A stretch of DNA of 32,000 nucleotides from Candidatus Hadarchaeota archaeon (GTDB lineage Archaea; Hadarchaeota; Hadarchaeia; Hadarchaeales; Hadarchaeaceae): contig CAZETV010000002.1 of the NCBI GenBank assembly GCA_964514965.1, positions 60,001 through 92,000 of the forward strand. Direction: 5' to 3'. Both the position numbers and the translations under genes were made by a program. This document shows positions 3,571-27,857 of the stretch, piece after piece (within the stretch, counting starts at the first letter, position 1; each line of letters opens with the position of its first letter). The notes under the pieces are model-generated. The model saw only the letters and a program-made list of their open reading frames with translations, made no database searches and was not told the origin of the DNA.

Positions 3571-3708
3571 CATAAACTGAAAACCATAAGTATTTCTATT
3601 TTTACTTATGCTGGATGTCTAAAAGGAATTAGGCTATATTTATGTAAAAGCCAAAGTAGACCAGAATCTTTAAGAACTACATGGAAACTATTTTTAAATG
3701 AAAGTTTT

Positions 3709-3840
3709 ATGGCTAAGAAAAAGAAAGGCGTTGCCGAAAAAAGCGGCGAAGTTGCAGGCAAGGGTATGCAAAAAGGCTGGAGCATTGCTAAAGGTTTTGG
3801 GAAAGGGTTAAAGAAAGGCTTAAAGAAAAAGAAAAAATAA
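3709..3840 (+). CDS. Possible 43-aa Lys/Gly-rich basic micro-protein (not in the ORF track)
   Basis: Hand translation gives MAKKKKGVAEKSGEVAGKGMQKGWSIAKGFGKGLKKGLKKKKK*. The opposite-strand 82-aa Phe-rich ORF (3606..3854) looks like its antisense shadow. Confidence 0.25.
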   Translation: MAKKKKGVAEKSGEVAGKGMQKGWSIAKGFGKGLKKGLKKKKK

Positions 3841-3899
3841 AAACCGCTCGGCAAGTCAAATAAGCGTCGGGAAGCATTCGCAAATTAGACCTTTTGCCA

Positions 3900-4427
3900 T
3901 CAATGGAGCCCATATCCTCCGGTTATCGGGTCCTGAAAAATCGGCAAGTGAAGCGGATAAAAAGTGAAAATTACGAATAACACGGCTAAAAGAATTAAAG
4001 CGACCAGGAAAATTTTACCCCACGTTTTAGGAAATTTTTTTGAAATCAACAACTTATAACTCACAAATTGGCCTATTACGACGGCGATGACGAAAGTAAG
4101 AATATCAATTGCAAACACACTTTCCCCGAGAATGGCCGTGTAAGAATAGAAGAGAACTGCTATGATTGTCGGCATTAAATAGATGCCAACCCCTTTCGCA
4201 AATAAAAAGTTCTGATTTGCTTTCAAGGGTCTGTATTCTATAATGGCGAAAAACAATGCCGGCCAAAAAGCCAGTTTCAGATGCTCCCACACGCTTTCGT
4301 TTACAGACGAAAATATCCCGACAACTGCCTGATGGTCTGACAACTCGAAAGTGAAATGTAGCAAACTCCCTAAGATTATTATAAAAACTATTCCCGCCAA
4401 CTCATAGACTAAAACAATCCTTTTCAT
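3900..4427 (-). CDS. Integral membrane protein, about 5 TM segments, function unknown
   Basis: 175-aa hydrophobic ORF in an AT-rich patch, with a conserved-looking N-terminal segment (LLHFTFELS...VNESVWEHLKLAFWP). Confidence 0.6.
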   Translation of the reverse strand: MKRIVLVYELAGIVFIIILGSLLHFTFELSDHQAVVGIFSSVNESVWEHLKLAFWPALFFAIIEYRPLKANQNFLFAKGVGIYLMPTIIAVLFYSYTAILGESVFAIDILTFVIAVVIGQFVSYKLLISKKFPKTWGKIFLVALILLAVLFVIFTFYPLHLPIFQDPITGGYGLH

Positions 4428-4553
4428 GATTAAACTCTCGAAATATGCTCCAGATTATTATATGCTTTCCAAGTAATTTAAATTTTGCAATAGAAGCACC
4501 GGAGAAAGTTCCCAACAAACAGCTCTTTGGCCGCACCAATTTGGGCCACGGCT

Positions 4554-5360
4554 TTACCGTCTTCGAAAAGCTGAGAGTATCCAAAAGAACAGTAAAATAG
4601 TGAAGAAAGACGACCCCCCGAAAAACACTCCGCCTCCATCGCTCGGAGCCGACGCCTTGGACTCACCCGCTGCGTGGACGTTTTCATAGTCAATCTCGTA
4701 CACGGCGAGGTCGGAACGCATCAACTTGGAAGGAGTCCACCCGAGCGGGTTCGTCCGCCCCGTGGCCTCGGCCCATATCCAGCCGCTCTTGCCATCAAGG
4801 CTCCAGTAGGCGTTCGCGCCTGGGTAGTCAGGCAGGTAAACGAGCGCTGCGGCGTGTTCTGGGGCAAGCACCACGGCCGATTGGAGACCAGCTGCTTTGA
4901 ACATCACCGCAAGTAGGACAGCATAGTCCTCGCAATCGCCGCGGGAAGAGCCAGCTGATTCGATGTCCTTGGCCATCTCGTCGGCGTTAATTGCAAAATC
5001 ATCGTAGCCGAACTGAACCGCGTCAGAGGTGTAGGTCACATTGTCTCGAGCATAGGTGAAGATTCGCTCTGCAAGCTCGTTTTTATCCGAGTACTCATTT
5101 TTAAACCTCTCGCCGACCGCCCATGCAATGTCTGTAAGCTGGAGGTTCTCTCCTATGCTCTCGAACGCGATTGCCGGACGGAAAGTCGAATCGGTGACTT
5201 GAAAGAACCCATTATCCCCCCAGCTCCTGGTCCGGCAGATGTTCCAGTTGTCATACACCTCCCCGTTTCTCTCGGAGTAGCTCGACGGATTTGCGAAGCA
5301 AGAACCTGCTGAGGCAAGCAATGTTAGCATCAGGAGCCCGACCAATGCGAGCTTTTTCAT
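4554..5360 (-). CDS. Secreted transglutaminase-like cysteine peptidase-fold protein with a C-terminal membrane anchor
   Basis: N-terminal signal peptide MKKLALVGLLMLTLLASAGSC. Transglutaminase-core-like motif RGDCEDYAVLLAVMFKAAGL. C-terminal Gly-rich linker, TM helix and RRR tail (GGGVFFGGSSFFTILLFFWILSAFRRR). Confidence 0.55.
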   Translation of the reverse strand: MKKLALVGLLMLTLLASAGSCFANPSSYSERNGEVYDNWNICRTRSWGDNGFFQVTDSTFRPAIAFESIGENLQLTDIAWAVGERFKNEYSDKNELAERIFTYARDNVTYTSDAVQFGYDDFAINADEMAKDIESAGSSRGDCEDYAVLLAVMFKAAGLQSAVVLAPEHAAALVYLPDYPGANAYWSLDGKSGWIWAEATGRTNPLGWTPSKLMRSDLAVYEIDYENVHAAGESKASAPSDGGGVFFGGSSFFTILLFFWILSAFRRR

Positions 5361-5368
5361 TAGAACAC

Positions 5369-5842
5369 CTAGATGGCGGCTGCGAAAGCGGCGTGGGTGA
5401 TGAGCCCTAGGAAGACGAAGTAGCCGAGGACGTAGAGCCCGGTCCCCAAGGAGCTTTCGCGAAGGCGGCTGAAGGGTATCTTGGGAGTCAGCCGGTCGAG
5501 AAGGTTGAACATCCCGACGGCGAGGAGCAGGCTAATGGCGAAGGCGACGATAATCAACCCGAGCCTCCGCATGATCAAGTCCAAGTCAAACGACCCTCCG
5601 GGAAGTGTGGTCACGGCGCCGTGAATCACCAGCCCGATGTAGACGAGGAAGCCCGAGATGAACATGCCCACCGAGCGCGGGTCCTTCCCCATCAACTCCC
5701 GCTCGTGGATTCGCGGGGTCAGGGCATCGAGCACCCGCAGGCCCAGCCACCCCAGGAAAAAGCATATCAGCGTGAAGAAGACTACCTTGACGACCCAATA
5801 CGCCACGAGTTCCCAGAATTCCACTCCAACACCAACCTTCAT
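5369..5842 (-). CDS. DUF350-like membrane protein with an internal duplication
   Basis: Two related halves: LDALTPRIHERELMGKDPRSVGMFISGFLVYIGLVIHGAV and LDRLTPKIPFSRLRESSLGTGLYVLGYFVFLGLITHAAF. Confidence 0.55.
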   Translation of the reverse strand: MKVGVGVEFWELVAYWVVKVVFFTLICFFLGWLGLRVLDALTPRIHERELMGKDPRSVGMFISGFLVYIGLVIHGAVTTLPGGSFDLDLIMRRLGLIIVAFAISLLLAVGMFNLLDRLTPKIPFSRLRESSLGTGLYVLGYFVFLGLITHAAFAAAI

Positions 5843-5898
5843 TACGTGGGAAGCAATAAAAGTGTGCTAGCTGCTCGGGCAACTTTAACCGTCAAGAC

Positions 5899-6153
5899 CT
5901 ACTCGATAAGTTTTACGCTCTTGAGCTTTGAAACCACTTCGGAGACCAAGGGTTTGACGCGCTCTTTCTCGGTCTTGGCCTTTGAGGCAATTTCATCTAT
6001 GACTTCTTCCTCGCTTTTACCATCACAGAGTTGCCATACGGCAGCGGCAATCTCGTCGACGCGAAATCCCTGATTTTTCTCATTGACGAGCGCTATTTCA
6101 CCCTTCTCGGTCCGAACAGCGTTGCCCTTGCGCTTCAACTTTTCTTTTTCCAT
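5899..6153 (-). CDS. PqqD-family (RiPP-recognition-element-like) small protein
   Basis: 84 aa. The pattern ...ALVNEKNQGFRVDEIAAAVWQLCDGKSEEEVIDEIASKAK...VKPLVSEVVSKLKSVKLIE matches the PqqD winged-helix consensus as I remember it. Confidence 0.6.
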   Translation of the reverse strand: MEKEKLKRKGNAVRTEKGEIALVNEKNQGFRVDEIAAAVWQLCDGKSEEEVIDEIASKAKTEKERVKPLVSEVVSKLKSVKLIE

Positions 6154-7780: not shown

Positions 7781-7866
7781 CTTATAAACAACTCCCACGC
7801 AAAGCTTCGGCGGGATGAATGGGGCGAACGCTTTTCCATCGGACGAAAGAGGCGGTAAAAGCTGAG
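7781..7866 (+). repeat. Copy 1 of an 86-nt direct repeat (TATA box plus the first roughly 16 codons, MGRTLFHRTKEAVKAE)
   Basis: Hand alignment to 8485-8570 gives 69/86 identical, and 46/53 over the first 53 nt. Confidence 0.75.
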
Positions 7867-7944
7867 CTCACACGCTCAACACTTGCGCAGAGAGGAGACC
7901 AAAACACTTTTAATTGGTGTAAACAAAAATGTTTACGTGAAAAA

Positions 7945-8166
7945 ATGCCCCAAGTCCAGCTGAGGGTACCTGAGGGAACGCTTGAAGAACTCGATAAATG
8001 GGTAAAAGAAGGTAGATTCAAAAGCCGCAGCGGCGCGATCAAAACCATCATTGCTTTTTACCAAGAGCGGGAACGAGCGCGCAGCTTCTACAAGATGCTA
8101 GTAGAGCGGAGCCGAGAGGCCAAGAAAAAACCAGAACTCCTCATTCCACTAGGGGAATTAGAGTGA
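7945..8166 (+). CDS. Ribbon-helix-helix (CopG-like) antitoxin
   Basis: MPQVQLRVPEGTLEELDKWVKEGRFKSRSGAIKTIIAFY fits the RHH fold pattern. The ORF is open upstream to 7819, but that extension is the repeat-derived remnant. The stop overlaps the toxin GTG start (GTGA). Confidence 0.7.
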   Translation: MPQVQLRVPEGTLEELDKWVKEGRFKSRSGAIKTIIAFYQERERARSFYKMLVERSREAKKKPELLIPLGELE

Positions 8167-8429
8167 GTTTTCAGGTCTTCCTGCATCCCAAGGCGGTGAA
8201 CTCTCTACAAAAGTTAGACAAGCTAATCAGGGGCGAAATAAAAAAGAAGTTGAAGGAGCTGGAAAAGCAGCCCAATTCAGGCAAACGGTTGCGATATTCT
8301 AATTTTTGGGGTTTAAGGGTGGGAGACTTTAGGGTTATCTACGAAATCGATCGTGCCGAAAAAAGAGTGATTGTATTATTCATCGGACACAGGAAAAAAG
8401 TTTACGACGATTTTTCAAGGATATTCTGA
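8163..8429 (+). CDS. RelE/ParE-family toxin
   Basis: 88 aa. KKLKELEKQPNSGKRLRYSNFWGLRVGDFRVIYEIDRAEKRVIVLFIGHRKKVY is the classic RelE/StbE pattern. Confidence 0.8.
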   Translation: MSFQVFLHPKAVNSLQKLDKLIRGEIKKKLKELEKQPNSGKRLRYSNFWGLRVGDFRVIYEIDRAEKRVIVLFIGHRKKVYDDFSRIF

Positions 8430-8484
8430 TTGAGCTGCTGCTAGCACCATAATCTCCGAAGGATCGCCCCCAACCAATTTCCCC

Positions 8485-8570
8485 CATATAAATAACCCCC
8501 ACCCAAAGCCTCAGCGGGATGAATGGGGCGGACGCTTCATTATCGAACGAAGGAGGCCGTAACAGTCGAG
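8485..8570 (+). repeat. Copy 2 of the 86-nt direct repeat (TATA box plus the first roughly 16 codons, MGRTLHYRTKEAVTVE)
   Basis: See copy 1. ATATAAATA lies at 8487-8495, about 28-36 nt upstream of the ATG at 8523. Confidence 0.75.
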
Positions 8571-12247: not shown

Positions 12248-12354
12248 CGAATCCCCACCTCCTTTTTGCCCGATTATAAAGAACCTCCGCGCAACGGCTT
12301 GACGGGAAAGATGGAGAAGAGACCGATACAGACAAATTTAGACGATTTTTCTGA

Positions 12355-12372
12355 AGTTTATAAAGTTTATAA
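12355..12372 (+). promoter_or_regulatory. Tandem AGTTTATAA x2 (double TATA-box-like element) upstream of the radical SAM gene
   Basis: AGTTTATAAAGTTTATAA was read directly. It lies 65-80 nt upstream of the in-frame ATG at 12437 and inside the 5' extension of the tracked ORF. Confidence 0.35.
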
Positions 12373-12436
12373 ATTACTTTCACCGACTTCTCCCTCCCCT
12401 AAAATCGCATTTATTAATGATCGTAGAGAATGCAAA

Positions 12437-13654
12437 ATGGGGGTGACAGTGCAGCAGGGCATACTGTTAGTGCAACCAGAGTTCCCGATCGCTGGTAAGA
12501 GCAGGTGGCATAAATCTTTCCTGCCAATCGGGCTCCTAAAGCTCGCTTCATACTACCGGAAAAAAGGGCACAATGTGAAGTTGGTCTGTGGTAAAAAGAA
12601 CCTAAAATTTCGACCTGATAAAGTCATGATAAGCTCGCTATTCACGTATTGGTCCAAATACGTCTGGGATTGCGTTAAACACTACAAACAGCTCTACCCA
12701 AATGCCAAGGTTGTGGTCGGTGGGATTTACGCCTCTCTAATGCCAGAACACTGCAAAAAGTCAGGGTGCGATGAAGTATTCGTTGGGGTGCACAAAAAAG
12801 CAGAGAAATGTGAACCTGCATACGATCTTCTTAAAAATAACTCTCACCCCATAGACTATCAAATAATTCACACTTCTCGAGGCTGCGTCAGAAAGTGCAA
12901 GTTCTGTGGCGTATGGAAGATTGAGCCCGATTTTGAATACAAAAAAAGCATAAAAGATGAAATTCGAAGCAACCAACTGGTATTTTACGATAACAACCTT
13001 TTGGCAAACCCTTACATCGAGAACATTTTGGAGGAGATAGCACATACCAAAGTTAACGGCAGGGTCGTGATCTGCGAGAGCCAATGTGGTTTCGATGGAC
13101 GAATGCTAACCCCTAAGCTCGCAAGGCTAATCAAGGGGGCACATTTTCAATATCCCAAAATTGCGTGGGACGGGTCTTATTCAGAGCACAAAAACATCAA
13201 AAAACAGCTAGACATGCTTATAGATGCTGGCTATAGCCACAAAGACGTTTTCGTGTTCATGATATACAACTGGGACCACGATTTCCGCGAGATGCAGAAA
13301 AAAAGATTGAAATGCTGGGGGTGGAAGGTGCAGATTTCTGATTGTCGATACAGACCATTGGAACAGACTTATGATAATTATGATCCGAGGAGAGTACAGA
13401 CGAACGATGATTATTTTATACATCCAAAATGGACTGATTCTGAGGTTAAACAGTTTAGAAAAAACGTGCGTAGGCAAAATATTTGTGTTAGGCTGGGATT
13501 TTCATTTCATAGCAAAATCTTAGAGCAGAAAAAGCTCGGCAAAAACACGATAAAAAAATTACGAGACATGACACCAACTAAAGCTAAAAAAATGTTGCCA
13601 GATGTTTGGAACCCTGGTGAGATTACATTCCCTAAAATGGACTTATGTACGTAG
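12437..13654 (+). CDS. B12-binding-domain (class B type) radical SAM protein
   Basis: N-terminal Rossmann-like segment ILLVQPEFP...LPIGLLKLASYYRKKGHNVKL...VVVGGIYAS. Radical SAM cluster motif SRGCVRKCKFCGVW (CxxxCxxC), followed by LVFYDNNLLAN. The tracked ORF extends to 12266, but the TATA element favours 12437. Confidence 0.75.
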   Translation: MGVTVQQGILLVQPEFPIAGKSRWHKSFLPIGLLKLASYYRKKGHNVKLVCGKKNLKFRPDKVMISSLFTYWSKYVWDCVKHYKQLYPNAKVVVGGIYASLMPEHCKKSGCDEVFVGVHKKAEKCEPAYDLLKNNSHPIDYQIIHTSRGCVRKCKFCGVWKIEPDFEYKKSIKDEIRSNQLVFYDNNLLANPYIENILEEIAHTKVNGRVVICESQCGFDGRMLTPKLARLIKGAHFQYPKIAWDGSYSEHKNIKKQLDMLIDAGYSHKDVFVFMIYNWDHDFREMQKKRLKCWGWKVQISDCRYRPLEQTYDNYDPRRVQTNDDYFIHPKWTDSEVKQFRKNVRRQNICVRLGFSFHSKILEQKKLGKNTIKKLRDMTPTKAKKMLPDVWNPGEITFPKMDLCT

Positions 13655-13655
13655 A

Positions 13656-14078
13656 TCATTTTTTCTTTACTTTCTTTGCTATCCCAATTAATTCCGTCTC
13701 TAATCTTTTACTAAAGCTACCTTTCCCACTAAAAACCTGATCTTTTAGAATTTTTATTCCGCCTGCAGCATATTCCTCGACTATTGAATACACTCTTTTT
13801 TTATCCAATAGCACTTCTAAATTACCTGCATCTTTTACAGCTACAGCGTTAATCAAAGCTTTTTCTGTATCGCTAAGGTATTCTGTCCTGATATATCCCG
13901 AGGGGTCCTTGTCTGTTATTTTGTGCTTTATTCCATTTTTGAATCCAACTACCATCGCTGCCAAAAATAAATGTTTTTTATTCTTGTTTCCAAATGGGCT
14001 ATCTTTTTCTTCCAGCCTTGAAAAATGTTCTTTATCACTTTTTCTAATGTAAATTATTGCTGGATCTTTACTTACCAT
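13656..14078 (-). CDS. Small protein reminiscent of 'DNA phosphorothioation (Dnd)-associated protein 4'-type proteins
   Basis: KHLFLAAMVVGFKNG...EYLSDTEKALINAVAVKDAGNLEVLLDKKRVYSIVEEYAAGGIKIL. An AGGTGG Shine-Dalgarno-like motif lies 6 nt before the ATG at 14078, so that start is preferred over the tracked TTG at 14120. The start overlaps the ATPase stop by 11 nt. The family call is from memory only. Confidence 0.45.
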   Translation of the reverse strand: MVSKDPAIIYIRKSDKEHFSRLEEKDSPFGNKNKKHLFLAAMVVGFKNGIKHKITDKDPSGYIRTEYLSDTEKALINAVAVKDAGNLEVLLDKKRVYSIVEEYAAGGIKILKDQVFSGKGSFSKRLETELIGIAKKVKKK

Positions 14079-14667
14079 ATTTTCCCACCTGCGCTTTTGA
14101 GCCTGTTTTAAGTTCTTCAAATATTATTTTGTATTCTCCAATCAAATTATCTGATAACTTTTTTCTGACGAATGGTGTATACTCGGTATCAGTCATTAAC
14201 AGAATAACTTGCTTGTTTTTTAGATATTTGGGTAAATTTTTGCAAATGTTTTCCCTTATTTCTCCAGAGATTCTACCCAGCGGGGTATCCATAACTATTG
14301 GGAAATCGAAACCAGAATATGCGCTCAAAGCATTTATGAATGATAATGCCAACGCTTCCATTTCACCTCTGCTTAAGCTTCCTAATCCTTCGTGGTCTGA
14401 TCTATGCGTGACGGAAATTTCATAATCATCGTTTATTTTTACATTTTTCCATTCATCTTTCTTCCAAATTAAATTGAAAAACGATTCTTTTGTGATTTGG
14501 TTAATTTTTTCTCTAGTGTCTTTCATAATGTTTTTTTTCACCTTAGTAGCCAATTCAACGGCTTCATCACAAAATGACACCACTTTGTTTAGCTCATCAA
14601 ATTCTTTAGATCTTTCTAGTTCTTTATCCCGTTCTCTTCTGTAGGTCTCGAACTGACTTTCGGCCAT
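14068..14667 (-). CDS. DndD-like SMC/ABC ATPase, C-terminal fragment (signature motif and Walker B)
   Basis: LSRGEMEALALSF is the ABC signature. FPIVMDTPLGRISGEIRENI...QVILLMTDTEY matches the DndD-type DTPLGRL Walker B/D-loop. This reading frame is actually open upstream to about 14806. Confidence 0.75.
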   Translation of the reverse strand: MAESQFETYRRERDKELERSKEFDELNKVVSFCDEAVELATKVKKNIMKDTREKINQITKESFFNLIWKKDEWKNVKINDDYEISVTHRSDHEGLGSLSRGEMEALALSFINALSAYSGFDFPIVMDTPLGRISGEIRENICKNLPKYLKNKQVILLMTDTEYTPFVRKKLSDNLIGEYKIIFEELKTGSKAQVGKYGK

Positions 14668-14702
14668 TTTAACTCGTGCCTCACGTTCACCGATATCTTC
14701 AC

Positions 14703-16028
14703 TTAATTTCGTGATTTCTGTATCAAGGTTTCCGTATCGTTTCTCCAGTATTTTAAATTTTTCTTCAATTTTTGAATCGACTTGTTCTTTAATTTTTTGC
14801 TTTTATTTTCATAGCCAGTTTCTAGTTTTTTGATTTCTCTTTCAAGTTTGATCATGCTTGTGTCAAAATTTTTAAGGTTATCGATGGATCGGGCTAAATC
14901 GGTTTTTAATTTAATCAAATCCGAACTAATGGCGGATATATCGCTTATTTTTTTAAGAAGACTCTCAACTTTTTTTCTACAACTGATATTCTTTTTAGTT
15001 ATGTCCGTCCCACAGATACAATTACCATCTTTAAGTAATTTTTCTAAATATTTTGGGTCTATATTTGGCGGTACATTTTCTTGGTCTTGTTCTCGAGTAA
15101 TCTCTTTAATTGTGGATTCTATAGCAGGATAAGTTAGTAAATGCAGGGAAGAATCTACAAGAAAATCCGTCAATTCATCTCTCTTATCTTTTATTGTTTT
15201 TTCAAGATCTTTCAAATCACGTTCAAGTTCTTCCCTGGTTTCCTGTAAGTTCCTTATATTTGGCATTGACTTTAATTCTTCGGCTATTTCGTTTTTATCC
15301 TTAACTTTCCCATCTTTTATTTTACGGAATTTTTCCAAGTCGGCTTTATAGTTGTTTAAGGATTTCTCCCAAGTATCAATTTTCTCTTGAGCATCTGCAA
15401 GAGCGGGAGTTAACTTTTTTGATTTTCTTACAAATTCGTTTTGTATTGCTCCCAAGTGCGATATCGCTTTTTCCAACACTTCCAATTGAGAAAGTTTAAA
15501 AATCTCCTTTTTTATCTCCTCACCAGATTTTTCTCTAAAATAACTTTCTAGCTTTTCACCATCAAAAAGAAAATAGTCTACAATACTCCCTGGTATCAAC
15601 TGATTAGCAACATAAGTCGGATCAGAAACAAATTTCATGTCGTCTCCGATTTCTCGTAAAAGTTCAAATTTTTGTTTGTTGGGAATTTCTTTTACTTCGC
15701 CATTTTCTTCACAATATTTTGTGCTTCTCACAAAAATCGCTTTATTTCCTTCATTGTCTGTCATTACAATTTCCACTTTTACTTCACATGCTGATGGACT
15801 CTCCTTTAAAGAAATAGTATTGACCGTGGGCAAAGCTAAACTTTTTTTATTTAGGTGTAACTCCCTGCCATATAAGCACCAAGTAATAGCGTTCATTATG
15901 TTTGTTTTCCCTGCCCCGTTTCTACCTTCTAAGACGACTATGTTTTTTTTGCCGAATGGTGCAGGGAACTCTATTATTTCATTTGCATATTGCCTATAAT
16001 TAATTAATTTAATTTTTTTAATTAACAT
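14703..16028 (-). CDS. DndD-like SMC/ABC ATPase, N-terminal fragment (Walker A and coiled coil)
   Basis: IKKIKLINYRQY...VVLEGRNGAGKTNIMNAITWCLYG is a Walker A with an SMC/Rad50-type N terminus. A long K/E-rich coiled coil follows. The last roughly 30 residues are out-of-frame read-through. Confidence 0.8.
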   Translation of the reverse strand: MLIKKIKLINYRQYANEIIEFPAPFGKKNIVVLEGRNGAGKTNIMNAITWCLYGRELHLNKKSLALPTVNTISLKESPSACEVKVEIVMTDNEGNKAIFVRSTKYCEENGEVKEIPNKQKFELLREIGDDMKFVSDPTYVANQLIPGSIVDYFLFDGEKLESYFREKSGEEIKKEIFKLSQLEVLEKAISHLGAIQNEFVRKSKKLTPALADAQEKIDTWEKSLNNYKADLEKFRKIKDGKVKDKNEIAEELKSMPNIRNLQETREELERDLKDLEKTIKDKRDELTDFLVDSSLHLLTYPAIESTIKEITREQDQENVPPNIDPKYLEKLLKDGNCICGTDITKKNISCRKKVESLLKKISDISAISSDLIKLKTDLARSIDNLKNFDTSMIKLEREIKKLETGYENKSKKLKNKSIQKLKKNLKYWRNDTETLIQKSRN

Positions 16029-16031
16029 GAA

Positions 16032-16202
16032 TTATTTCACCGCCTTTTTTACAAGATTTTCGTACGTTTCACTATACCACCAACGATCTTCCTCGGAGTG
16101 GTCTGTTTCTAACATCAATATTTCTTTCAGAAATTTTTTGGTTTTTTCACTATAATTGCTTTTTTCAATTTCTTTGATGATTCTTTCGTTTAATATAGCC
16201 AT
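16032..16202 (-). CDS. Untracked 56-aa ORF between the helicase and the ATPase
   Basis: Hand translation gives MAILNERIIKEIEKSNYSEKTKKFLKEILMLETDHSEEDRWWYSETYENLVKKAVK*. It starts 8 nt after the helicase stop and ends 3 nt before the ATPase ATG. Confidence 0.4.
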   Translation of the reverse strand: MAILNERIIKEIEKSNYSEKTKKFLKEILMLETDHSEEDRWWYSETYENLVKKAVK

Positions 16203-16210
16203 GTGAACCA

Positions 16211-18307
16211 CTATAGGTTAAATTCTTTCCTTATTTTTTTAACTTTTTCAAGACACTTCGGGGTGTTGTTAGCATCATATGCGAACTCTTCGTATCTCTT
16301 TAGCTCTTTTATCAGTATCTTCCTTTCCAATTCAAAAAAATCTGGTTCGAAAGAACGTTGCGAAGAGGGCAAAACAATAATGTCGTAGAGTGTGGCCTTG
16401 TCCTTTCCCGGAAAACGTCTTAAAAGCCTCCCTCTTCTTTGAATGAATTCTCTGGGATTACCCGAGCTCGAGAGCAATATGCCTGTTCTGGCGGGTGGAA
16501 CATCCACTCCTTCGTCTAAACATTTCATTGCAACTAAAATCTGATAATCGCCATCGGCAAATTTTCGGAGCAAAATTTCTCGTTGGGCAACGTTTTCGAC
16601 CGCTGTAAACTTGTGTTGTAAAATATCTCTGTCGTTTAAAATTCTTTGAACTCTCTTTATCTGTTTTGGCGAACAATAAACAAAGCAATGTCTGGCACCG
16701 CCACCGATCTTGTCTAATATTTTTTCAAAAACAACGTATTTGTTTTGAGCGTTTTTTACGGTCTCTTGACGTTTTATACATAACAAATTAAAAAGTTCCT
16801 TTCTCTCCTGGTTAGACTTGCATGCGTAATATTGTCGAGCAATTTTCTTAGTTTCAGATTGATAGAGGTAAAACTCTTCGTCAGTCATCTCGACGAAATA
16901 GGGTTCATATTCGTATGGTGTGAGATAAGTTTCTCCGGTTTTTGGATTTACAGTTGTGATGGCATCTTTTATAGAGAAAACTGATACTATATCTCCGAAA
17001 TACTCAAAAAGTTTTTTGCTTCCAGGTTCATCAAAATATCTTTTAGGTGTTGCACTTAACCCCAACCTGAATTCATATCGGTCTAACAAACCTTTTTGTC
17101 TCTCTGGTGCCCCGAGGGTATGAACTTCGTCGCCAATTAAAAATACTTTTGCGCTAGTTTCATTTATTATTTCAGTAAAATCATTACTAGAAATGGTATT
17201 TGGGGTAGTTAAAATTATTATTTTTTCACTAATGTCATTTTCTATGTCCCGCAAGTAGTCAACCAGTTTATTTTTCCAACCTGGATTGCTACTATCAGCG
17301 ATTACGATAAGCCAATGAATGTCAAATTTTATTATTTCATTTTCCCATTGTTTCAGCAAATGTTTGGTGGGTGAAGTAATGACAATGACAAGCTTTTTTT
17401 CTGATTCAGACATTTTCTTCAAACATCCCAACGCAGCAAACGTTTTCCCAGAACCTGTAGCCATTTCAAAAATCCCTTTCTTACCGTTTTCTAACCAATT
17501 AGCGATAGCACTCTCTTGATGAGTCCATAACTTGATTGCTTTTTTTCTTATCCATTCTTTCTTTATCAACCATTTGTCCAGATTCAAAACTTCAACATTG
17601 TCTGGAGCTATTTTAATAAGCTTTTCTTTTACGCCGGTGGGGACATCGATAACTTTTGTTCTTCTTGCCTGTCCATTCCAGAATTTTTCAAATTTTTTGA
17701 TATCTGTATCAAGATATTCTTTTTCAGTTTCTTTCCAACTACAAAATACTTTAAACTCTTCTATATGCCTCGTCCATCCATAAGCGCTTTCGTTATCAGA
17801 ACCGCTAAACGATATTCGGTTCCCTTCTACATCTTCTAATATACCGACCTTCTGATGAAACAATCCTTCTTTTTCGATAGATTCTTCATCAAGAGGTAGC
17901 CCGTCCTCATCATAAACGATTGCTATTTTAATTTCTAGTTTCTTTTTGGCAATCATCCACCCCAGTGCGCACACATGGTCTTCCACGAATTTATCTTCTA
18001 AATTTTCCAATTCTTCAAGCATCATTTTTTCTATCACTTTCTCAGGAGTTTCATGAGCTTCTCTAATAACTTCAACATCGGATTTTCGTAGTTTGGCGCT
18101 TGTAACTAAATACATGAATCCACCATTGGAAATCAATTTAGAAATTCCTCTCGCGGCAACAGCAAGAGCGCTTGAAGAGAAAAATCCAGCTAACCTTTTA
18201 TAAGTTACTGATTGGGATAATGCAAGTATGTAAAAGTCATTTAGAATATCGTCAATGTCGGAGTCGTAAGCTTTTTTTAGCTTTATACCCTTCAAGGTCA
18301 TGTTCAC
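16211..18307 (-). CDS. PLD-like (single HKD) nuclease domain fused to an SF2 (ResIII/DEAH-type) helicase
   Basis: The N-terminal region has YKRLAGFFSSSAL and FHQKVGILED...FSGSDN (HxK...GSxN). Helicase motifs are EMATGSGKTF (I), LIGDEVHTL (II), LGLSATP (III) and QRRGRLLR (VI). A GGAGG lies 7 nt before the ATG at 18301, so the start is probably 18301 rather than the GTG at 18307. Confidence 0.85.
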   Translation of the reverse strand: MNMTLKGIKLKKAYDSDIDDILNDFYILALSQSVTYKRLAGFFSSSALAVAARGISKLISNGGFMYLVTSAKLRKSDVEVIREAHETPEKVIEKMMLEELENLEDKFVEDHVCALGWMIAKKKLEIKIAIVYDEDGLPLDEESIEKEGLFHQKVGILEDVEGNRISFSGSDNESAYGWTRHIEEFKVFCSWKETEKEYLDTDIKKFEKFWNGQARRTKVIDVPTGVKEKLIKIAPDNVEVLNLDKWLIKKEWIRKKAIKLWTHQESAIANWLENGKKGIFEMATGSGKTFAALGCLKKMSESEKKLVIVITSPTKHLLKQWENEIIKFDIHWLIVIADSSNPGWKNKLVDYLRDIENDISEKIIILTTPNTISSNDFTEIINETSAKVFLIGDEVHTLGAPERQKGLLDRYEFRLGLSATPKRYFDEPGSKKLFEYFGDIVSVFSIKDAITTVNPKTGETYLTPYEYEPYFVEMTDEEFYLYQSETKKIARQYYACKSNQERKELFNLLCIKRQETVKNAQNKYVVFEKILDKIGGGARHCFVYCSPKQIKRVQRILNDRDILQHKFTAVENVAQREILLRKFADGDYQILVAMKCLDEGVDVPPARTGILLSSSGNPREFIQRRGRLLRRFPGKDKATLYDIIVLPSSQRSFEPDFFELERKILIKELKRYEEFAYDANNTPKCLEKVKKIRKEFNL

Positions 18308-18521
18308 GCCTCCAATTAAACTAACGACCCACTTTAATTACTTTTTTAGTCATTTAACTCTATTTATCTTCCTAATTCCATCCCAAGTAGTCCGCCTCGG
18401 TCTCGAAAACTCCTCAAAATTAGGACAAAGCCGACCCCGTTTTCTTGGCTACCAAGATTAAAAAACCAAATATTGCTATCGGCTGCCCTAGCGGTGCTTC
18501 TTCACCGGGTAGATCTCCTAC

Positions 18522-19565
18522 CTAAATCTTCCGCTGGGGAATCAGCCGAGAGTAAAATTCCCTCGGCCTCAGCTCCTTAAATTCCCCGGTTCGCTGGGCT
18601 ATGTGCTTCCGGATATCCACGCACAGGTGGCATTTCGAGATGTACCCGTCTGGAGCCTCCTCGTAATCGAATTCCTCGACGGCGAACCTGTACAGTTCTC
18701 CCATCCCCGTCACGAGGGCGCTGAGGATCGGGCGGTCATCCAGCCTCACCCCCTCGCAGATCGATTCCAGGTCCCTCGCATCTCCGAGCGAAAGCCCCCC
18801 GCAGTAGCCGGTGATGTAGTTGAAGTAATTGTCGATGTGGAAGTGCCAGCCCCTCGTCAGCTCGGCCGCACACGAGTCCCCGAAAAATACCTTCGCCGGG
18901 TATTTACGGTACAGGTGCCCGAGCTCGTAGGGCGCCCTTCCCATCGGGAGCAGTTCCAGCCTCAGCGCGTCTTGGCCCGCAAGCTTGAGGGTTTCTTCGA
19001 GTGACAAAGTGCCGCTTACCCCCAGCCCCCTCATCAGCTCGTAGAAGCCCTCCTGATAGACCAGCACGTTCGACCCGAATACCTCCCTGCTCACCTCGAT
19101 CGCCGTTGCCGCACGCTTGAGGGGGACGTGCTCCAGGATGAAGGGGTTGACGCTTATCAGGATCCCGTCCAGCCCGGCATCCCTGAGCTTGGAGAGTTTT
19201 TCCTTGCAAACTCGACGGCTGGTGCACCAGAAGCAATTAGTCTCGACGAAGGTCGCCGGAATCTCGAGCGCCTCGGCAACCTTGGTGAGCTCGAGTAAGA
19301 GGTCGAAGTTCATGAAGGGTTCGCCGCCCGTGAAGTGAAGCCCGTAGTTTATCCCAACGGTCTTGAAGCCGGGCGGATATTGCACCCGAAACCTTCCTGA
19401 TAGCTCGGTCAGGACCTTTTCGGCATCTCCCAGATCGATCCAATCTGCATCCCAGCGCGGGGAGCAAGCATACATGCAGTGCTTGCATTCGCCCGTGCAT
19501 TTGTACGTGAGGAACAAGCCTCCCGAGAAAGGTTCTTCCACTTTTAAAATCGTCATACAAATCAC
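18522..19565 (-). CDS. Radical SAM protein, function unknown
   Basis: FLTYKCTGECKHCMY (CxxxCxxC), HFTGGEPF, and further Cys residues in the C-terminal part (GYCGG, KCHLC). Composition is GC-rich and host-like. Confidence 0.7.
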   Translation of the reverse strand: MICMTILKVEEPFSGGLFLTYKCTGECKHCMYACSPRWDADWIDLGDAEKVLTELSGRFRVQYPPGFKTVGINYGLHFTGGEPFMNFDLLLELTKVAEALEIPATFVETNCFWCTSRRVCKEKLSKLRDAGLDGILISVNPFILEHVPLKRAATAIEVSREVFGSNVLVYQEGFYELMRGLGVSGTLSLEETLKLAGQDALRLELLPMGRAPYELGHLYRKYPAKVFFGDSCAAELTRGWHFHIDNYFNYITGYCGGLSLGDARDLESICEGVRLDDRPILSALVTGMGELYRFAVEEFDYEEAPDGYISKCHLCVDIRKHIAQRTGEFKELRPREFYSRLIPQRKI

Positions 19566-22751: not shown

Positions 22752-23606
22752 CTAGAAAGGTGCGAATACGCCCATAAACACGAACCACGCCAAAATTGTT
22801 TTTGCGGCTAAACTGAGAATAACGTAAAATCGTTCGCCATAGAGGTAATCTCTCCAACGTCCGACACCTTTGTACTGTAAGACCATGTTGATCGCGAAGA
22901 TATTGAACAGAATGAAATAGATGAAAGGGATGAAGTATACGAATGTTGGAATTTCTCCTCCCACAGAGTTAACAGCAGCAACGAAATAGGCGAAAATCAC
23001 GACCCATGGAACCCAACCTGAAATCGTCCCCAAGATAAATGGCGACCAATTAGTCTTTTTTGTTTTCTGATTGAGAATTTCCATCAAATACCCGAACATT
23101 ATCATCATCGCGTTTAAGACGAAAATCATGATCAACGACCAAAAATCCCAGACACCCACCAACAGTGCAATCAGTAATATCATTATTGAGCTTGAGAAGG
23201 CGTACTCGTACCAGCGGTAAGGATTCATCCCTTTTTTCAAATTTTCATTGTAACGGTTATTTACCAGATACGAAATCGAAAAGTGCGCTATGGCAGAAAT
23301 TAGGAGGAAGGAAGCGAGAATCGCCCCCAAATATTCGAAAGTAAACAAAATTTGAGGATTCGGTACCACCTCGAATAGGATTGGTTCCGTAGTAATTATT
23401 TTTATATCAAGATAGAACGTGTATACATTTCTCGAAAACGTCAGAAGAAGACCCAACAGCAACATTGCTATCCCCTGAACTAAATGCAAAGAACCTGCGA
23501 TGGTGTTGAAGCGTTTCAGATAGGTAAAAGTTATAGGTGAGCTGGCGATTATTTTCTGCCTTTCTTTATAATCCATTGGTGCCCCCATAGTACTAAATAT
23601 GTCCAA
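22752..23606 (-). CDS. Heliorhodopsin
   Basis: FNTIAGSLHLVQ, NPYRWYEYAFSSSIMILLIA (counterion Glu), GWVPWV, and QYKGVGRWRDYLYGERFYVILSLAAKTILAW (Schiff-base Lys, codon at 22800-22802) parallel the published heliorhodopsins 48C12/TaHeR as I remember them. The likely true start is the ATG at 23588 or 23576. Confidence 0.85.
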   Translation of the reverse strand: MDIFSTMGAPMDYKERQKIIASSPITFTYLKRFNTIAGSLHLVQGIAMLLLGLLLTFSRNVYTFYLDIKIITTEPILFEVVPNPQILFTFEYLGAILASFLLISAIAHFSISYLVNNRYNENLKKGMNPYRWYEYAFSSSIMILLIALLVGVWDFWSLIMIFVLNAMMIMFGYLMEILNQKTKKTNWSPFILGTISGWVPWVVIFAYFVAAVNSVGGEIPTFVYFIPFIYFILFNIFAINMVLQYKGVGRWRDYLYGERFYVILSLAAKTILAWFVFMGVFAPF

Positions 23607-24546: not shown

Positions 24547-26460
24547 ATGTCTGCAAGCGCCATAATCCAAGAGATAATTCTAGAAAATTTCATGAGTTAC
24601 GAATATTCTAGAATCCCATTCAATCCGGGGCTCAACCTAGTTTGCGGTCCAAACGGCGCTGGAAAGTCATCAATTCTGCTCGCTCTAGCTGTGGCCCTTG
24701 GGCAGACCTACACCGAGCGCTCCCGTAAGCTCAGCGACCTCATCCGCCGGGGTAAGAATCTGGGACGAGTGAGCGTGGTGTTCGACAATTCCCCCCACAA
24801 TGGAAGGAGGCCCATCCCGAGCGTGAACTCTGATAGTCTAGTCCTTTCGCGCTATCTGAACCGCGACGGAACCTACTGGCATGAGGCCAATAACCGCACG
24901 ATAACGAAGGGCGAGGTGCTGCGGCTGCTCGGGCGGCTCTCGATAAACCCCGACAACATGCTCATCATCATGCACCAGAACATGATTGATGTGCTCGGGG
25001 CGATAGATGCACACGAGCGGCTAAAAATCATCGAGGAAGCGGTCGGGCTGCGCGAGTACCGGGAGCATATCCTCGAGGCGCGTGAGAAGCTTTCGCACAC
25101 CTTGAGCGAGGAGGAGTCGATTCGCAGCCTGCTCGAGAAAGCTCAAGAAACGTTGCGCTACTGGGAGGGCGAGTACGGGAGATTTCAGCGGAAGCAAGAG
25201 CTCGGAGAGCGGAAGCAGGAGCTAGAGCTGGAATACGCTTGGGCGAAATGTATCCGGCAGGAAGAGGCGGTCGGCAACCTTCAATCTAAACTCGACGGGC
25301 TAAAGTCAGAGCTGAGTGAGATCGAGGGCGAGCTGGAGCAAAACTCGAAACGTGGCGGGGAGCTTGAAAAAAAGTTGGGGGAACTTGGGTTTGAACTCGA
25401 TGCTGCCTATCAAAAGCTCATCACCCAAGAACGGGCACAAGCCGAAGCGGGGGCACGCGCCAAGCTCATTGAGAGTTTCAACACATCCATACGCTCGGTG
25501 GCCGAAGTTGGCTTGAGTGAATTGCTCGCACACCTCGAGGTCGAACTGGGGCGGGCGAAAGAAACCCTTAAAGAAGCCGGCGAGCGGGCGAATGAGGTGA
25601 AATCTGAACTCGTCAGGGGCAAGGGCGAACTCGAGAAAACCCAAGAAACTTACGTTAACTCCCGTATCCACACCGCCGTGCTGGGGTTCCGCCGCGAACT
25701 CCTAGAACGTGACATCTCAAGCGCTCAGTCCGAACTCAGGCGAGCACGCCGCGAGCTGGAACAACTGGAGAATGATGCCCAGCAATTGGGGACGCGGGTC
25801 GAGACCGAAAGAAAGCCCCAGGAAGTGCTCGATGAACTCAAACTCACCAACATCCAACTAGCCAGCTTAGCTGATGTCTCACCCGATGTCGAGAGGATGT
25901 ATCTAAACTACAAGGGTACACTCAAGGAACTCGAGGCAAAGGCCGAGGTAGCTGCAGCCAACCGTAAGCGGGCGCTCGATGAGCTGGAACTCAGAAAGCA
26001 GCGCTGGACCGATGAAACAAACAACCTTATACGTCAAGTTAAGGTGAACTACATCGAAATCCTGAAGCGAGTTAACGCGAGCGGTGATGTGATTCTGACG
26101 AACGCTCAAGATATCGACGAAGCAGGGATAGAGCTGTTCGTTGGTTTCAGGGGGTCCGAACCTCAGGTGCTGAACGCCTACACACAGAGCGGAGGGGAAC
26201 GAACGACTTCCCTAATGTGTTTTCTGCTGGCGCTGCAGCAACAAATTCAATCCCCCATCCGTGCAATCGACGAGTTTGAAGCCCATCTGGACCCACACAA
26301 TCGGGAGGCAATCCTGCAGGGGATTATAGAGTTCATGAAGGGCGGGGAGACGCAGTACATCGTGATCACCCCCGGACAGCTTTTCAACGTGAAAGGGATA
26401 CCAAACGTGATCACCGTTCAAAACATCGCGGGCTCATCTCAGGTGAAGGTGGCTGCTTGA
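24547..26460 (+). CDS. Short SMC-like ATPase with SMC5/6-like head motifs
   Basis: N terminus: IIQEIILENFMSYEY...LNLVCGPNGAGKSSILLALAVALG...ERSRKLSDLIRRG. About 380 aa of E/L/K/R coiled coil follows. C terminus: YTQSGGERTTSLMCFLLALQQQIQSPIRAIDEFEAHLDPHNREAIL. Confidence 0.85.
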   Translation: MSASAIIQEIILENFMSYEYSRIPFNPGLNLVCGPNGAGKSSILLALAVALGQTYTERSRKLSDLIRRGKNLGRVSVVFDNSPHNGRRPIPSVNSDSLVLSRYLNRDGTYWHEANNRTITKGEVLRLLGRLSINPDNMLIIMHQNMIDVLGAIDAHERLKIIEEAVGLREYREHILEAREKLSHTLSEEESIRSLLEKAQETLRYWEGEYGRFQRKQELGERKQELELEYAWAKCIRQEEAVGNLQSKLDGLKSELSEIEGELEQNSKRGGELEKKLGELGFELDAAYQKLITQERAQAEAGARAKLIESFNTSIRSVAEVGLSELLAHLEVELGRAKETLKEAGERANEVKSELVRGKGELEKTQETYVNSRIHTAVLGFRRELLERDISSAQSELRRARRELEQLENDAQQLGTRVETERKPQEVLDELKLTNIQLASLADVSPDVERMYLNYKGTLKELEAKAEVAAANRKRALDELELRKQRWTDETNNLIRQVKVNYIEILKRVNASGDVILTNAQDIDEAGIELFVGFRGSEPQVLNAYTQSGGERTTSLMCFLLALQQQIQSPIRAIDEFEAHLDPHNREAILQGIIEFMKGGETQYIVITPGQLFNVKGIPNVITVQNIAGSSQVKVAA

Positions 26461-26461
26461 A

Positions 26462-27253
26462 ATGCCGGGCGAACGCAAAGAACTGATGTTACGGATAATC
26501 GACCTCTGCGACACTGTGCGAAAGCGAGGAGTCGACCCCTTCGACGTTGAGGTTCGAGAGTTTTTTGACCGACTGCGGGAACTCCTCCCAAATCTGAAAA
26601 AGAATGAGGACCTTTATCTTGACATCCAAGCGGTGCTCGGGCTTGCCGATGTGGTGTTCCAGCAGGGCGAGTGGATCAAGCACAAGTCGTCGATGCTCTA
26701 CCTCGATCCCCTGCTGATTATGCTCAAGCTTCATGCCCTCCCGGCGCGAGAGCTTGCCGATGTCTTCGCGCGTTCATGGCACCCCATTGTGCAGATGGAG
26801 ACACTCTCGCCCCACGGCATTTCCGAGGCCAAGCAGTACTGGACTAATCTACCGAGCCTTGAAGAACGCTGGCGTGGGCTCGACACGACTGAGGTGTTTA
26901 CTGGGGAGATAGCCCGCCGAGAGCTCGTTCGCATGGGCATCCTTTCAGAGGAAGACTTCGCGGCGGTGCTTGATCAGACTTGGCGCGAGCTCAAGGAAGC
27001 GGTGGGGGAGCGGGGCGAAATCTCTTACTGGGATTTCATCCACAACCAGAGCTTCGAGGAAACCGTCAGGCGGGCATGGCTCGTGAGCTTCTTGGTGAGC
27101 TATGGCTACGCCACTCTCGAACTCAAGCCCCTTGAGGAGGAAATTTTGCTGAGACCGTTGCCCAAACCGCGAGAACTCGAACGTGTCACAACCTTCTCTG
27201 TCCCTATCGCTATTTCCCGTGACGAGTGGCTCAGGAGGCTAAAGGGTGGCTGA
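26462..27253 (+). CDS. Kleisin-like (ScpA/Nse4-like) subunit candidate
   Basis: Starts 1 nt after the SMC stop. The N-terminal helix region (RIIDLCDTVRKRGVDPFDVEVREFFDRLRELL) and the C-terminal WHD-like segment (FEETVRRAWLVSFLVSYGYATLELKPLEEEILLRPL) resemble ScpA-type kleisins. Confidence 0.55.
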   Translation: MPGERKELMLRIIDLCDTVRKRGVDPFDVEVREFFDRLRELLPNLKKNEDLYLDIQAVLGLADVVFQQGEWIKHKSSMLYLDPLLIMLKLHALPARELADVFARSWHPIVQMETLSPHGISEAKQYWTNLPSLEERWRGLDTTEVFTGEIARRELVRMGILSEEDFAAVLDQTWRELKEAVGERGEISYWDFIHNQSFEETVRRAWLVSFLVSYGYATLELKPLEEEILLRPLPKPRELERVTTFSVPIAISRDEWLRRLKGG

Positions 27254-27857
27254 GGAACCAGATGTCGCCGAGCTACGGGAAAAGCTGGCGCGGGCTGCAC
27301 AGCTCCTGCTCTACAAGCACCACATGCAACCGGGAGCCAAGGAATGGGAGCTCAGGCGCACTCTGGGCAGGGACTACGAGCAGATTCTGAAGCTTCTCGA
27401 CGCCGAATTCGATAAACTGGGGCTAAAAGTAAAGCGAGTGAGCGAGGGCGAGACCAGCTCGGAATCGGACAGATATTATGTCACGCTCCGAGGGCATCCG
27501 AGAGTGACCGAGACCCGAACCTTCGGGTGGCGGATTGATGACATGGCAATGCTCACCGTCGCGCTCGCCCACATCCTATCAAAACAGGGAAAAGCCCCCC
27601 TCAAAGAGGTCGAGCGAATGTTGGAGGAAAAATTCCCGCGCTGGCGCATCGAGTCGACTTTAGACCGGTTCATCCGGCGGGGCTACCTGTCGGAGGATGA
27701 TGAAGGGTTGCTCTACGTGGGGTGGCGCGCTCGGGCGGAAATCGACCAGCGAACTCTGCTCGGGTTGTTGTTGGGGAAAGAAGAGAAGCCTAACGAAGCT
27801 GAGGCCGAGCCGAAAGTCGAAACCAAGAAAGTAGAAGAAACTAAAGGAGATAGCTAA
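27246..27857 (+). CDS. KITE-type winged-helix protein (MAGE/Nse3-/ScpB-like) candidate
   Basis: AAQLLLYKHHMQPGAKEWELRRTLGRDYEQILKLLDAEFDKLGLKVKRV...RYYVTLRG parallels the MAGE-homology/Nse3 WH-A pattern. A second WH-like half and an acidic/lysine tail follow. It overlaps the kleisin gene by 8 nt. Confidence 0.5.
   Translation: MAEEPDVAELREKLARAAQLLLYKHHMQPGAKEWELRRTLGRDYEQILKLLDAEFDKLGLKVKRVSEGETSSESDRYYVTLRGHPRVTETRTFGWRIDDMAMLTVALAHILSKQGKAPLKEVERMLEEKFPRWRIESTLDRFIRRGYLSEDDEGLLYVGWRARAEIDQRTLLGLLLGKEEKPNEAEAEPKVETKKVEETKGDS

Follow-up and report, generated by a model that had tools for sequence, protein, structure and literature searches.

A radical SAM gene as putative fifth member of a PbeABCD subclade, in an AT-rich archaeal island with a frameshifted pbeC

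An AT-rich island in a Hadesarchaeon genome joins a described four-gene cassette to a gene for a radical S-adenosylmethionine (SAM) enzyme. The island lies within 32,000 nucleotides (nt) of contig CAZETV010000002.1 (Candidatus Hadarchaeota archaeon, assembly GCA_964514965.1, positions 60,001 to 92,000 of the forward strand); this whole stretch was analysed and is called the window here. Judged from profile matches and gene order, the four minus-strand genes of the island are the already described PbeABCD cassette, and they meet the plus-strand radical SAM gene head-on. From a comparison with related loci we concluded that the radical SAM gene is to be regarded as a functional partner, a near-obligate fifth gene, in the PbeA subclade to which the window belongs. 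The best explanation, in which we place somewhat more than even confidence, is a PbeABCD subclade without dndBCDEA in which the radical SAM enzyme would supply the self-marking, with a copy in the window whose pbeC is broken.

Scanning metagenomes with a PbeA alignment gave 80 loci with PbeA proteins of 49–61% identity, chosen out of 455 as the 80 most similar to the window PbeA, and the scan of a genome collection gave just one PbeA relative. The overall comparison covered about 85 related loci (numbered here with the prefix L), and PbeA identity in the informative ones ranged from 39 to 98%. A radical SAM homologue was present within 4 kb in 56 of 61 informative PbeA loci (55 by tblastn and one by clustering), and dnd genes were present in five. 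When the 66 PbeA loci with pbeD were sorted, 56 had the radical SAM gene, five had dnd genes, four were too short to tell and one had neither, so that radical SAM and dnd genes are nearly mutually exclusive across loci. The DndA and DndC proteins of L001, used as tblastn queries, were matched in only five related Pbe loci. The radical SAM gene was co-directional in 49 of 53 loci, usually right after pbeD; in L012 (57% PbeA identity) it lies 4 nt past pbeD in the same direction. The convergent gene of the window is kept in L009, L010 and L011, and on the viral contigs L105 and L106 the linkage was still present at 38–39% PbeA identity. Across the Pbe neighbourhoods the only conserved families were PbeA, PbeC, PbeD, the radical SAM enzyme and a DndB/DpdB-like protein, all others being found in five loci or fewer.

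Two architectures were distinguished among these loci. In type 1, to which the window belongs, a radical SAM gene comes after pbeABCD, and its product has about 400 amino acids (aa) and is 45–92% identical to the window enzyme. In type 2, seen at L044 6164-9693 and about 25 similar loci (for example L020, L034, L031, L041 and L039), PbeD carries a fused Schlafen/AlbA_2 domain, the 364-aa radical SAM protein is about 30% identical to that of the window, and a protein of about 455 aa belonging to a ParB-like family matches both DndB (Pfam, E = 1e-15 to 1e-19) and DpdB (PADLOC, E = 8e-18). The radical SAM and DndB-like genes travel together, and the pair stands downstream, upstream (L031, L041) or inverted (L039). 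PbeA and the radical SAM protein were correlated in Mantel tests in both types (r = 0.81 for type 1, n = 18; r = 0.84 for type 2, n = 27; p ≤ 0.0005), compared with r = 0.86 and 0.90 for PbeA and PbeD. The published value for PbeAC versus DndCD is rho = 0.107 (PMC6459918). Co-occurrence and co-variation, which the initial annotation had suggested as a check on the linkage of these genes, were thus both observed for the radical SAM gene.

A canonical locus, L001 from Nitrosotenuis, has pbeABCD converging on dndA-E-D-C-B. Since a dnd operon converges there in L001, the radical SAM gene of the window occupies the slot of the modification operon. A convergent 387-aa open reading frame (ORF) of L001 was considered as a radical SAM homologue and rejected, as it is DndA. 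Mrr-type and GmrSD-type modification-dependent nucleases precede the dnd-pbe locus in L001 (6632-9893), a typical defence island.

The identity of the four minus-strand genes was established with profile searches. The PADLOC model PDLC02707 covers PbeA over its full length (E = 2e-231, aa 5-685 against a profile of 672 positions), and TIGR04095, dnd_restrict_1, a DNA phosphorothioation system restriction enzyme, matches it with E = 1e-128. Its N-terminus matches NF042964, a PLD anti-phage family (E = 2e-20), and it has ResIII, DEAD and Helicase_C domains. Residues H149, K151, D157 and G167-S168-x-N170 (window 17792-17857), together with the GSGKT (17441-17455) and DEVH (17120-17131) motifs, were invariant in 20 homologues, and the ratio of nonsynonymous to synonymous substitution rates (dN/dS) of pbeA was 0.09–0.20. 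PbeB had no match in PADLOC (to E ≤ 10), NCBIfam or Pfam, which is in keeping with PMC10853773, where this protein is described as small and rapidly evolving. ORFs of matching size occupy this position in L001, L009, L010, L011 and L012, with PbeB 59–93% identical to its relatives; since dN/dS against L011 was 0.14–0.18, pbeB is a real coding gene. PbeD matched TIGR04062, dnd_assoc_4, under the curated cutoff (E = 2e-10) and had no PADLOC match at E ≤ 10; the precomputed annotation of the identical gene lists PF27807, DNA_S_mod_dnd_assoc_4. The PbeD family lies directly 3' of pbeC in 56 loci, and dN/dS of the window pbeD was 0.15–0.35. The two fragments of PbeC, described below, both matched the PADLOC PbeC model.

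These genes agree with the system of Xiong et al. (2019, Nat Commun 10:1688; PMC6459918), in which pbeABCD encodes a PLD/ResIII/helicase protein, a 66-aa PbeB, an SMC/DndD-like ATPase and a 152-aa PbeD. The sizes in the window, 696, 59, about 656 and 140 aa, repeat the large-small-large-small order published for pbeABCD (PMC6459918). Typical sizes in Pbe/CxC systems are about 680–700 aa for PbeA, about 60 aa for PbeB, about 620–690 aa for PbeC as a single polypeptide and about 140–150 aa for PbeD. In that system protection needed all four pbe genes together with phosphorothioate modification by dndCDEA, and 320 of 553 pbeAC pairs (58%) were found without dnd (PMC6459918). Since most pbeAC pairs are solitary, pairing with dnd does not define Pbe membership by sequence. 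Compared with DndCDEA-PbeABCD, which was described from a haloarchaeon, the window has the same four genes with the same order, sizes and domains, but it belongs to a Hadesarchaeon, has no dnd genes within its 32 kb, carries the radical SAM gene at the position of the dnd operon and has a frameshifted pbeC. The initial annotation had set Pbe aside and placed the genes in no named system, a claim that the PADLOC scores for PbeA and for PbeC (E = 2e-72 and 1e-42) contradict. By the refuting condition that the initial annotation had set, assignment of the genes by profile searches, novelty is lost for these four genes, while the radical SAM gene remained unassigned. DISARM (DrmA helicase, DrmB with DUF1998 and the PLD protein DrmC, with or without a methylase) was rejected as the identity of the cassette: the PLD-helicase scores as PbeA and no Drm models were among the 25 PADLOC matches listed for any of the proteins. 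Dnd, Lamassu and Gabija were ruled out by the PADLOC scores.

The radical SAM protein matched the Pfam domains B12-binding (E = 3e-9; 37.2 bits, with the gathering score at 32.1) and Radical_SAM (E = 1e-4). The CxxxCxxC motif is CVRKCKFC at 12884-12907; its cysteines C150, C154 and C157 were invariant in 52 homologues, and the motif was intact in all 48 pbe-linked copies. The AlphaFold model had a pLDDT of 93.5, and the nearest folds found in the PDB with Foldseek were AprD4, TsrM and TokK (E about 1e-10, TM 0.56–0.64, 10–13% identity); the fold of the N-terminal domain also matches stand-alone B12-binding domains. With Class B radical SAM enzymes (TsrM and TokK, and also AprD4 with its B12 domain) the island enzyme shares a Rossmann B12-binding-like domain and a CxxxCxxC barrel, but it is shorter (about 400 aa) and only 10–13% identical to them. 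A profile search found no sequence relative in the PDB, and the protein had no PADLOC or NCBIfam model, PADLOC matches at E ≤ 10 being at chance level (PDC-M51A, 0.012). Cobalamin binding and B12-dependent chemistry of the enzyme are putative; to our knowledge, the equivalent domain of AprD4 does not use B12. None of the Class B radical SAM enzymes known to us has DNA as its substrate or is part of a defence system. A dN/dS of 0.06 indicates strong purifying selection on the gene. Gene callers start it at ATG 12311 (447 aa); the first ~42 aa of this longer form are uncovered by homologues, and two TTTATAAA boxes at 12357 and 12366 stand upstream of the start of the 405-aa form.

A frameshift was found in the pbeC gene of the window. 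The span from 16028 to 14068 is 1961 nt, no multiple of three, and contains a 441-aa and a 199-aa ORF, each in its own frame, so that the single DndD-like ATPase gene of the initial annotation does not stand; the frameshift had been missed. The N-terminal fragment matched positions 3-421 of the 618 positions of PADLOC PDLC02723 (E = 2e-72) and the C-terminal fragment positions 466-618 (E = 1.4e-42). The former also matched DndD (TIGR03185, E = 3e-21) and AAA_23 and SMC_N domains, and the latter positions 457-644 of the same DndD model. The N-terminal fragment has GRNGAGKT at 15903-15926 and CIC at 15012-15020 (residues 337-339), and the C-terminal fragment has LSRGE at 14362-14376 and IVMDTP at 14281-14298. 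In a MAFFT alignment with L010, L009 and L011 the window row had a single gap, 10 columns long, at ~14787-14797, where AAAATTAAAG is doubled in tandem in L010 and L009 and present in a diverged version in L011. The pbeC genes of these three loci are 1965–1971 nt long, all multiples of three, and their intact PbeC proteins have 654–656 aa; a second public assembly of the window locus shows the same sequence as the window. We read the loss of 10 nt as a slippage-type deletion, which puts about 30 codons of the coiled coil out of frame before the N-terminal ORF ends at 14703. No further lesions were found in either half of pbeC, and the deletion therefore looks recent.

As pbeC is frameshifted and each pbe gene was indispensable in the system that was tested, the cassette in the window, and with it the restriction arm in this genome, is probably inactive. 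It is improbable, in our estimate, that the split pbeC works as an ABC ATPase of two polypeptides, or that the frameshift is corrected on expression, and that the cassette is active. Both fragments are intact apart from the deletion, the C-terminal one has its own ATG with GAGG ~11–14 nt upstream, and dN/dS of pbeC between the window and L010 was 0.33, not clearly relaxed. However, dS against L010 is about 0.05, which leaves little power for detecting relaxed selection, the lesion is the loss of one tandem-repeat unit that shifts ~30 coiled-coil residues out of frame, and all 63 other complete loci encode PbeC in one full-length ORF.

Table 1 Features of the island, in window coordinates
Feature	Position	Strand	Remarks
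Inserted AT-rich island	12257..18521		~6.2 kb; radical SAM gene + pbeABCD
Class-B-type radical SAM enzyme, N-terminal B12-binding-like Rossmann domain + radical SAM barrel	12437..13654	+	405 aa
pbeD, DndE-like small DNA-binding protein	13656..14078	-	140 aa
pbeC C-terminal fragment, ABC signature + Walker B	14068..14667	-	199-aa ORF from internal ATG
pbeC N-terminal fragment, Walker A + coiled coil + CxC Zn-hook	14703..16028	-	441 aa, last ~30 aa out of frame
pbeC lesion site, one AAAATTAAAG copy against two tandem copies in intact relatives	14787..14797	-	MAFFT alignment
pbeB, small protein	16032..16211	-	59 aa (GTG 16211) or 56 aa (ATG 16202)
pbeA, HKD (PLD-family) nuclease + SF2/ResIII helicase	16211..18301	-	696 aa from ATG; 698 aa from GTG 18307

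The genes of the island are tightly packed. An 8-nt gap separates pbeA from pbeB (a 1-nt overlap if GTG 16211 is taken as the pbeB start) and a 3-nt gap pbeB from pbeC, while pbeC and pbeD overlap by 11 nt; the convergent stop codons of pbeD and the radical SAM gene are 1 nt apart. The initial annotation had already given these gaps, the overlap and the head-on radical SAM gene, and its ORF coordinates for pbeA, pbeB, pbeD and the radical SAM gene are exact against the ORF table, as are its hand counts of G and C (19/60 and 20/60 inside the island, 37/60 and 39/60 in the flanks). By gene, GC content is 0.364 in pbeA, 0.322 in pbeB, 0.331 in pbeC, 0.333 in pbeD and 0.421 in the radical SAM gene; outside the island it is 0.53 and 0.58 in the flanking genes and 0.509 in the remaining window. 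The deoxyhypusine synthase in the flank falls into a cluster, at 90% identity, of proteins from metagenome-assembled genomes of Hadesarchaea/Hadarchaeaceae. Contig L107, from a related Hadesarchaeon, matches the window flanks at 85–94% nt identity and has no island, and no pbe or radical SAM genes were found in it. The 94% nt homology to L107 stops at 12256, just outside the radical SAM gene. A clean "empty site" in L107 was rejected, as other genes occupy that position; since L107 has different genes there, only the left boundary of the island is defined. Between the homologue of a 297-aa protein gene of the left flank and the MscS gene, L107 carries a segment of ~3.3 kb (2652-5938; NOG1-type GTPase, IF5A-like gene and small ORFs) that the window lacks. 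The 297-aa gene itself was considered as a member of a radical SAM module, in the place of a 277-aa partner found in L003 and L004 (see below), and rejected; the two proteins are not similar, and L107 has the 297-aa gene too, as a gene of the host.

The whole block is present in three other public assemblies, with 96% nt identity in L010, 88% in L009 and 78% in L011, and its homology in these ends near the start of pbeA. In L009 the block sits downstream of a tyrosine integrase and a primase-MCM replicase. Since L107 is without the island and the L009 block sits in such an element, the island, radical SAM gene included, is a horizontally acquired module of this Hadesarchaeon genome, in agreement with the initial annotation. 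No convincing pair of flanking direct repeats (attachment sites) was found around the island. ARAGORN detected no tRNA in the 32-kb window, and the Pfam list of an identical public contig, with a Pfam scan of the remaining ORFs, showed no methyltransferase, integrase or dnd genes among its ORFs. DndA, DndB, DndC and canonical DndD or DndE were absent from the window, with no ORF matching Aminotran_5 or PAPS_reduct; the absence of DndA, DndC, DndE, methyltransferase, integrase and tRNA asserted from the sequence at the outset is thus upheld for these 32 kb. Between the window and L009, dS was 1.66 for the radical SAM gene, 0.55 for pbeA, 0.16–0.33 for pbeC, 0.19 for pbeD and 0.10 for pbeB. This unevenness along the block indicates a mosaic, with recombination inside the cassette.

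Homologues of the radical SAM enzyme with 61–78% identity also occur without pbe genes. Their neighbours include HATPase_c_3/MORC-like ATPases, solo Cas1 with family-B polymerase, DUF5131 and NurA/mad8-like genes, and a neighbour-joining tree clusters the window enzyme with such non-pbe copies. In L004 (4890-13095), L005, L006 (5064-11372) and L007 the homologues are 71–78% identical and adjoin a solo Cas1 gene; L004 and L005 have the family-B DNA polymerase as well, a casposon-like context. A HATPase_c_3 (MORC-like GHKL) ATPase of 495–548 aa accompanies the radical SAM gene in L003 (7001-10622), L004 (4890-8494), L063 (8557-11687) and L090 (15032-17981), and in L063 and L090, which are Pbe loci, its gene follows the radical SAM gene. 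In L003, L004 and L005 a conserved protein of 277 aa joins the pair, and no PADLOC model exists for any member. The pairing may represent an undescribed system in its own right that employs this enzyme. Ten viral contigs carried the radical SAM gene without pbeA or pbeC. On the IMG/VR contig L093 (9586-11260) a PbeD-like gene is its sole partner and a Gp3-like recombination directionality factor comes next, and on the IMG/VR contigs L096 (2951-6543) and L101 (7681-10048) it adjoins C5 cytosine DNA methylases. A position beside C5 methylases, or with a PbeD-like gene alone, is what one would expect of a modification gene that serves self-protection.

The Aravind laboratory equates Pbe with its CxC-type ABC-ATPase/DndE-anchored system (NAR 2024, PMC10853773), in which an HKD endoDNase-SF2 helicase is joined by a small protein that evolves fast, an ATPase with a CxC Zn-hook and a cognate of DndE. 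Many CxC systems lack phosphorothioate genes and may use other modifications (PMC10853773). The alternative modifiers named for them are cytosine C5/N4 methylases with MTaX1 (PMC10853773), whereas the subclade of the window has the radical SAM gene, and methyltransferases were nearly absent from 82 Pbe loci (no C5-methyltransferase homologue and one crude match to an amino-methyltransferase motif). The window encodes the HKD-SF2 helicase, a small disordered protein, the CxC ATPase and the DndE cognate of these systems. Krishnan et al. are said to have given the first definition of CxC systems in 2020. Neither the text nor the supplement of PMC10853773 mentions a radical SAM or B12 partner. The searchable literature, whose coverage was without Krishnan et al. 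2020, held no paper joining Pbe or CxC systems with a radical SAM or B12 enzyme. The radical SAM fifth gene and the chemistry it implies are probably undescribed. In relation to the DndABCDE module, the window has a DndD-like protein (PbeC) and a DndE-like protein (PbeD), and type 2 loci have a DndB/DpdB-like one as well; the window is without the cysteine desulfurase DndA and the sulfur-inserting PP-loop enzyme DndC, and the radical SAM enzyme would take the catalytic role.

We propose that in this subclade the pair of PbeC and PbeD, as homologues of DndD and DndE, would scan DNA and, with the radical SAM enzyme, place a covalent and probably sequence-specific mark on host DNA. This mark would stand in for the phosphorothioate made by DndA and DndC at canonical dnd-pbe loci, and PbeA, an HKD nuclease with an SF2 translocase, would attack unmarked invading DNA while the small PbeB restrains it. 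A putative DNA-marking role, which the initial annotation had suggested for the radical SAM enzyme as the self-marking component, is the best-supported reading from gene context. The companions of the enzyme (DndD, DndE and sometimes DndB/DpdB homologues) are the non-catalytic parts of known DNA-modification modules. Radical SAM enzymes are already involved in thymidine hypermodification in phages (PMC5889632, PMC8989533), and a ParB-dependent DNA-modifying enzyme is known from phages (PMC13229309). The more general proposal, that a DNA modification by radical chemistry, guided by PbeC-PbeD and at some loci also by the DndB/DpdB-like protein, replaces phosphorothioate as the self mark for PbeA, and that viruses and MORC-like modules have borrowed the enzyme, is tentative, and we hold it with a little less than even confidence.

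Several observations weigh against these proposals. We infer the substrate of the enzyme from gene context only, and the absence of dnd genes holds for the 32-kb window, so that some could lie elsewhere in the genome. The linkage of about 90% describes the subclade and not all Pbe, because the loci are the best 80 of 455. The homologues without pbe genes lie on long contigs, and since such close homologues occur the enzyme is not specific to Pbe. In the group of the window the radical SAM gene is convergent and outside the pbe operon, and because its dS against L009 is 1.66, compared with 0.10–0.33 for pbeB to pbeD, it would have a partly separate history. The pbeC deletion is possibly a minority variant of the sampled population, and a prior mention of the radical SAM gene in Krishnan et al. 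2020 is possible. A rival view is that the radical SAM gene is an independent, mobile gene of defence islands or mobile elements hitch-hiking beside a solitary PbeABCD, the functional unit, which would be inactive without phosphorothioate (cf. Xiong et al.). This view draws on the non-pbe homologues, the ten viral contigs without pbeA or pbeC, the place of the window enzyme in the tree, its convergent orientation, the dS mosaic along the block and the frequency of solitary pbeAC pairs in the published set (320 of 553; PMC6459918). We nevertheless consider it improbable. A hitch-hiker would hardly account for the presence of the gene in 56 of 61 informative loci, its shared direction in 49 of 53 with a spacing of 4 nt in L012, or an adjacency that outlasts inversion and relocation (L031, L039, L041); moreover, no other family is conserved in the Pbe neighbourhoods, and the Mantel correlation of PbeA with the radical SAM protein nearly equals that with the product of the core gene pbeD.

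Alternatively, the radical SAM enzyme could be a member of the system that acts as effector or signal generator, for example by making a viperin-like nucleotide that blocks viral replication. Prokaryotic viperins are a precedent for radical SAM enzymes as antiviral effectors, and the closest solved fold, AprD4, is that of a small-molecule dehydratase and not of a methylase. Xiong et al. reported that Pbe arrests viral replication without DNA cleavage (PMC6459918), but the system tested there had no radical SAM gene. The effector role is unlikely in our judgement: the viral copies adjoin DNA methylases or only a DndE-like partner, which fits self-protective marking and not a host effector, DndB/DpdB-like partners are typical of DNA-modification modules, and the mutually exclusive pattern shows the radical SAM gene in replacement of dnd genes. 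The initial annotation had instead seen an uncharacterised five-gene system unrelated to any named one. In its favour, the module of five genes is conserved, and no PADLOC, NCBIfam or PDB sequence match exists for the radical SAM protein; yet four of the five genes fit the profiles of PbeA, PbeC and PbeD and the order published for pbeABCD, and this reading is very improbable.

Other genes of the window were also noted. A second radical SAM gene (18522-19565, minus strand, 347 aa, GC 0.58) abuts the island; it has host-like composition, is unrelated to the island enzyme and has weak matches to the YydG family (2e-10) and to viperin (NCBIfam, 8e-5; PADLOC pVip, 1.7e-5). A three-gene operon at 24547-27857 (plus strand) encodes a coiled-coil ABC ATPase of 637 aa (PADLOC mad3, E = 2e-29; LmuB, E = 6e-19), a protein of 263 aa that weakly matches Nse4_C (kleisin-like) and a 203-aa protein; it could be a second defence-type module, Lamassu- or MADS-like, or a housekeeping SMC-like one. 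At 7819-8429 (plus strand) a 115-aa ORF is followed by an 88-aa ParE-toxin gene, and because this stretch (~7866-8487) is without a counterpart in L107 it is a small toxin-antitoxin insertion. A heliorhodopsin gene (PF18761) at 22752-23606 on the minus strand coincides with a low-GC patch of about 0.40.

For the window itself, four of the five genes belong to a known system, and the copy is probably dead. The wider finding is a radical SAM enzyme that co-evolves with PbeA as its partner in a large subclade, mostly from sediment and subsurface metagenomes. Xiong et al. left the question of why most pbeAC pairs lack dnd, and whether other DNA modifications are their partners (PMC6459918). If the enzyme marks DNA, it would point to an epigenetic DNA chemistry of a new kind, and restriction-modification-like immunity would gain a new modification arm. 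No earlier radical SAM "methylase-equivalent" would then precede it among restriction-modification-like systems, and the partner of many "solitary" PbeABCD cassettes would be explained.

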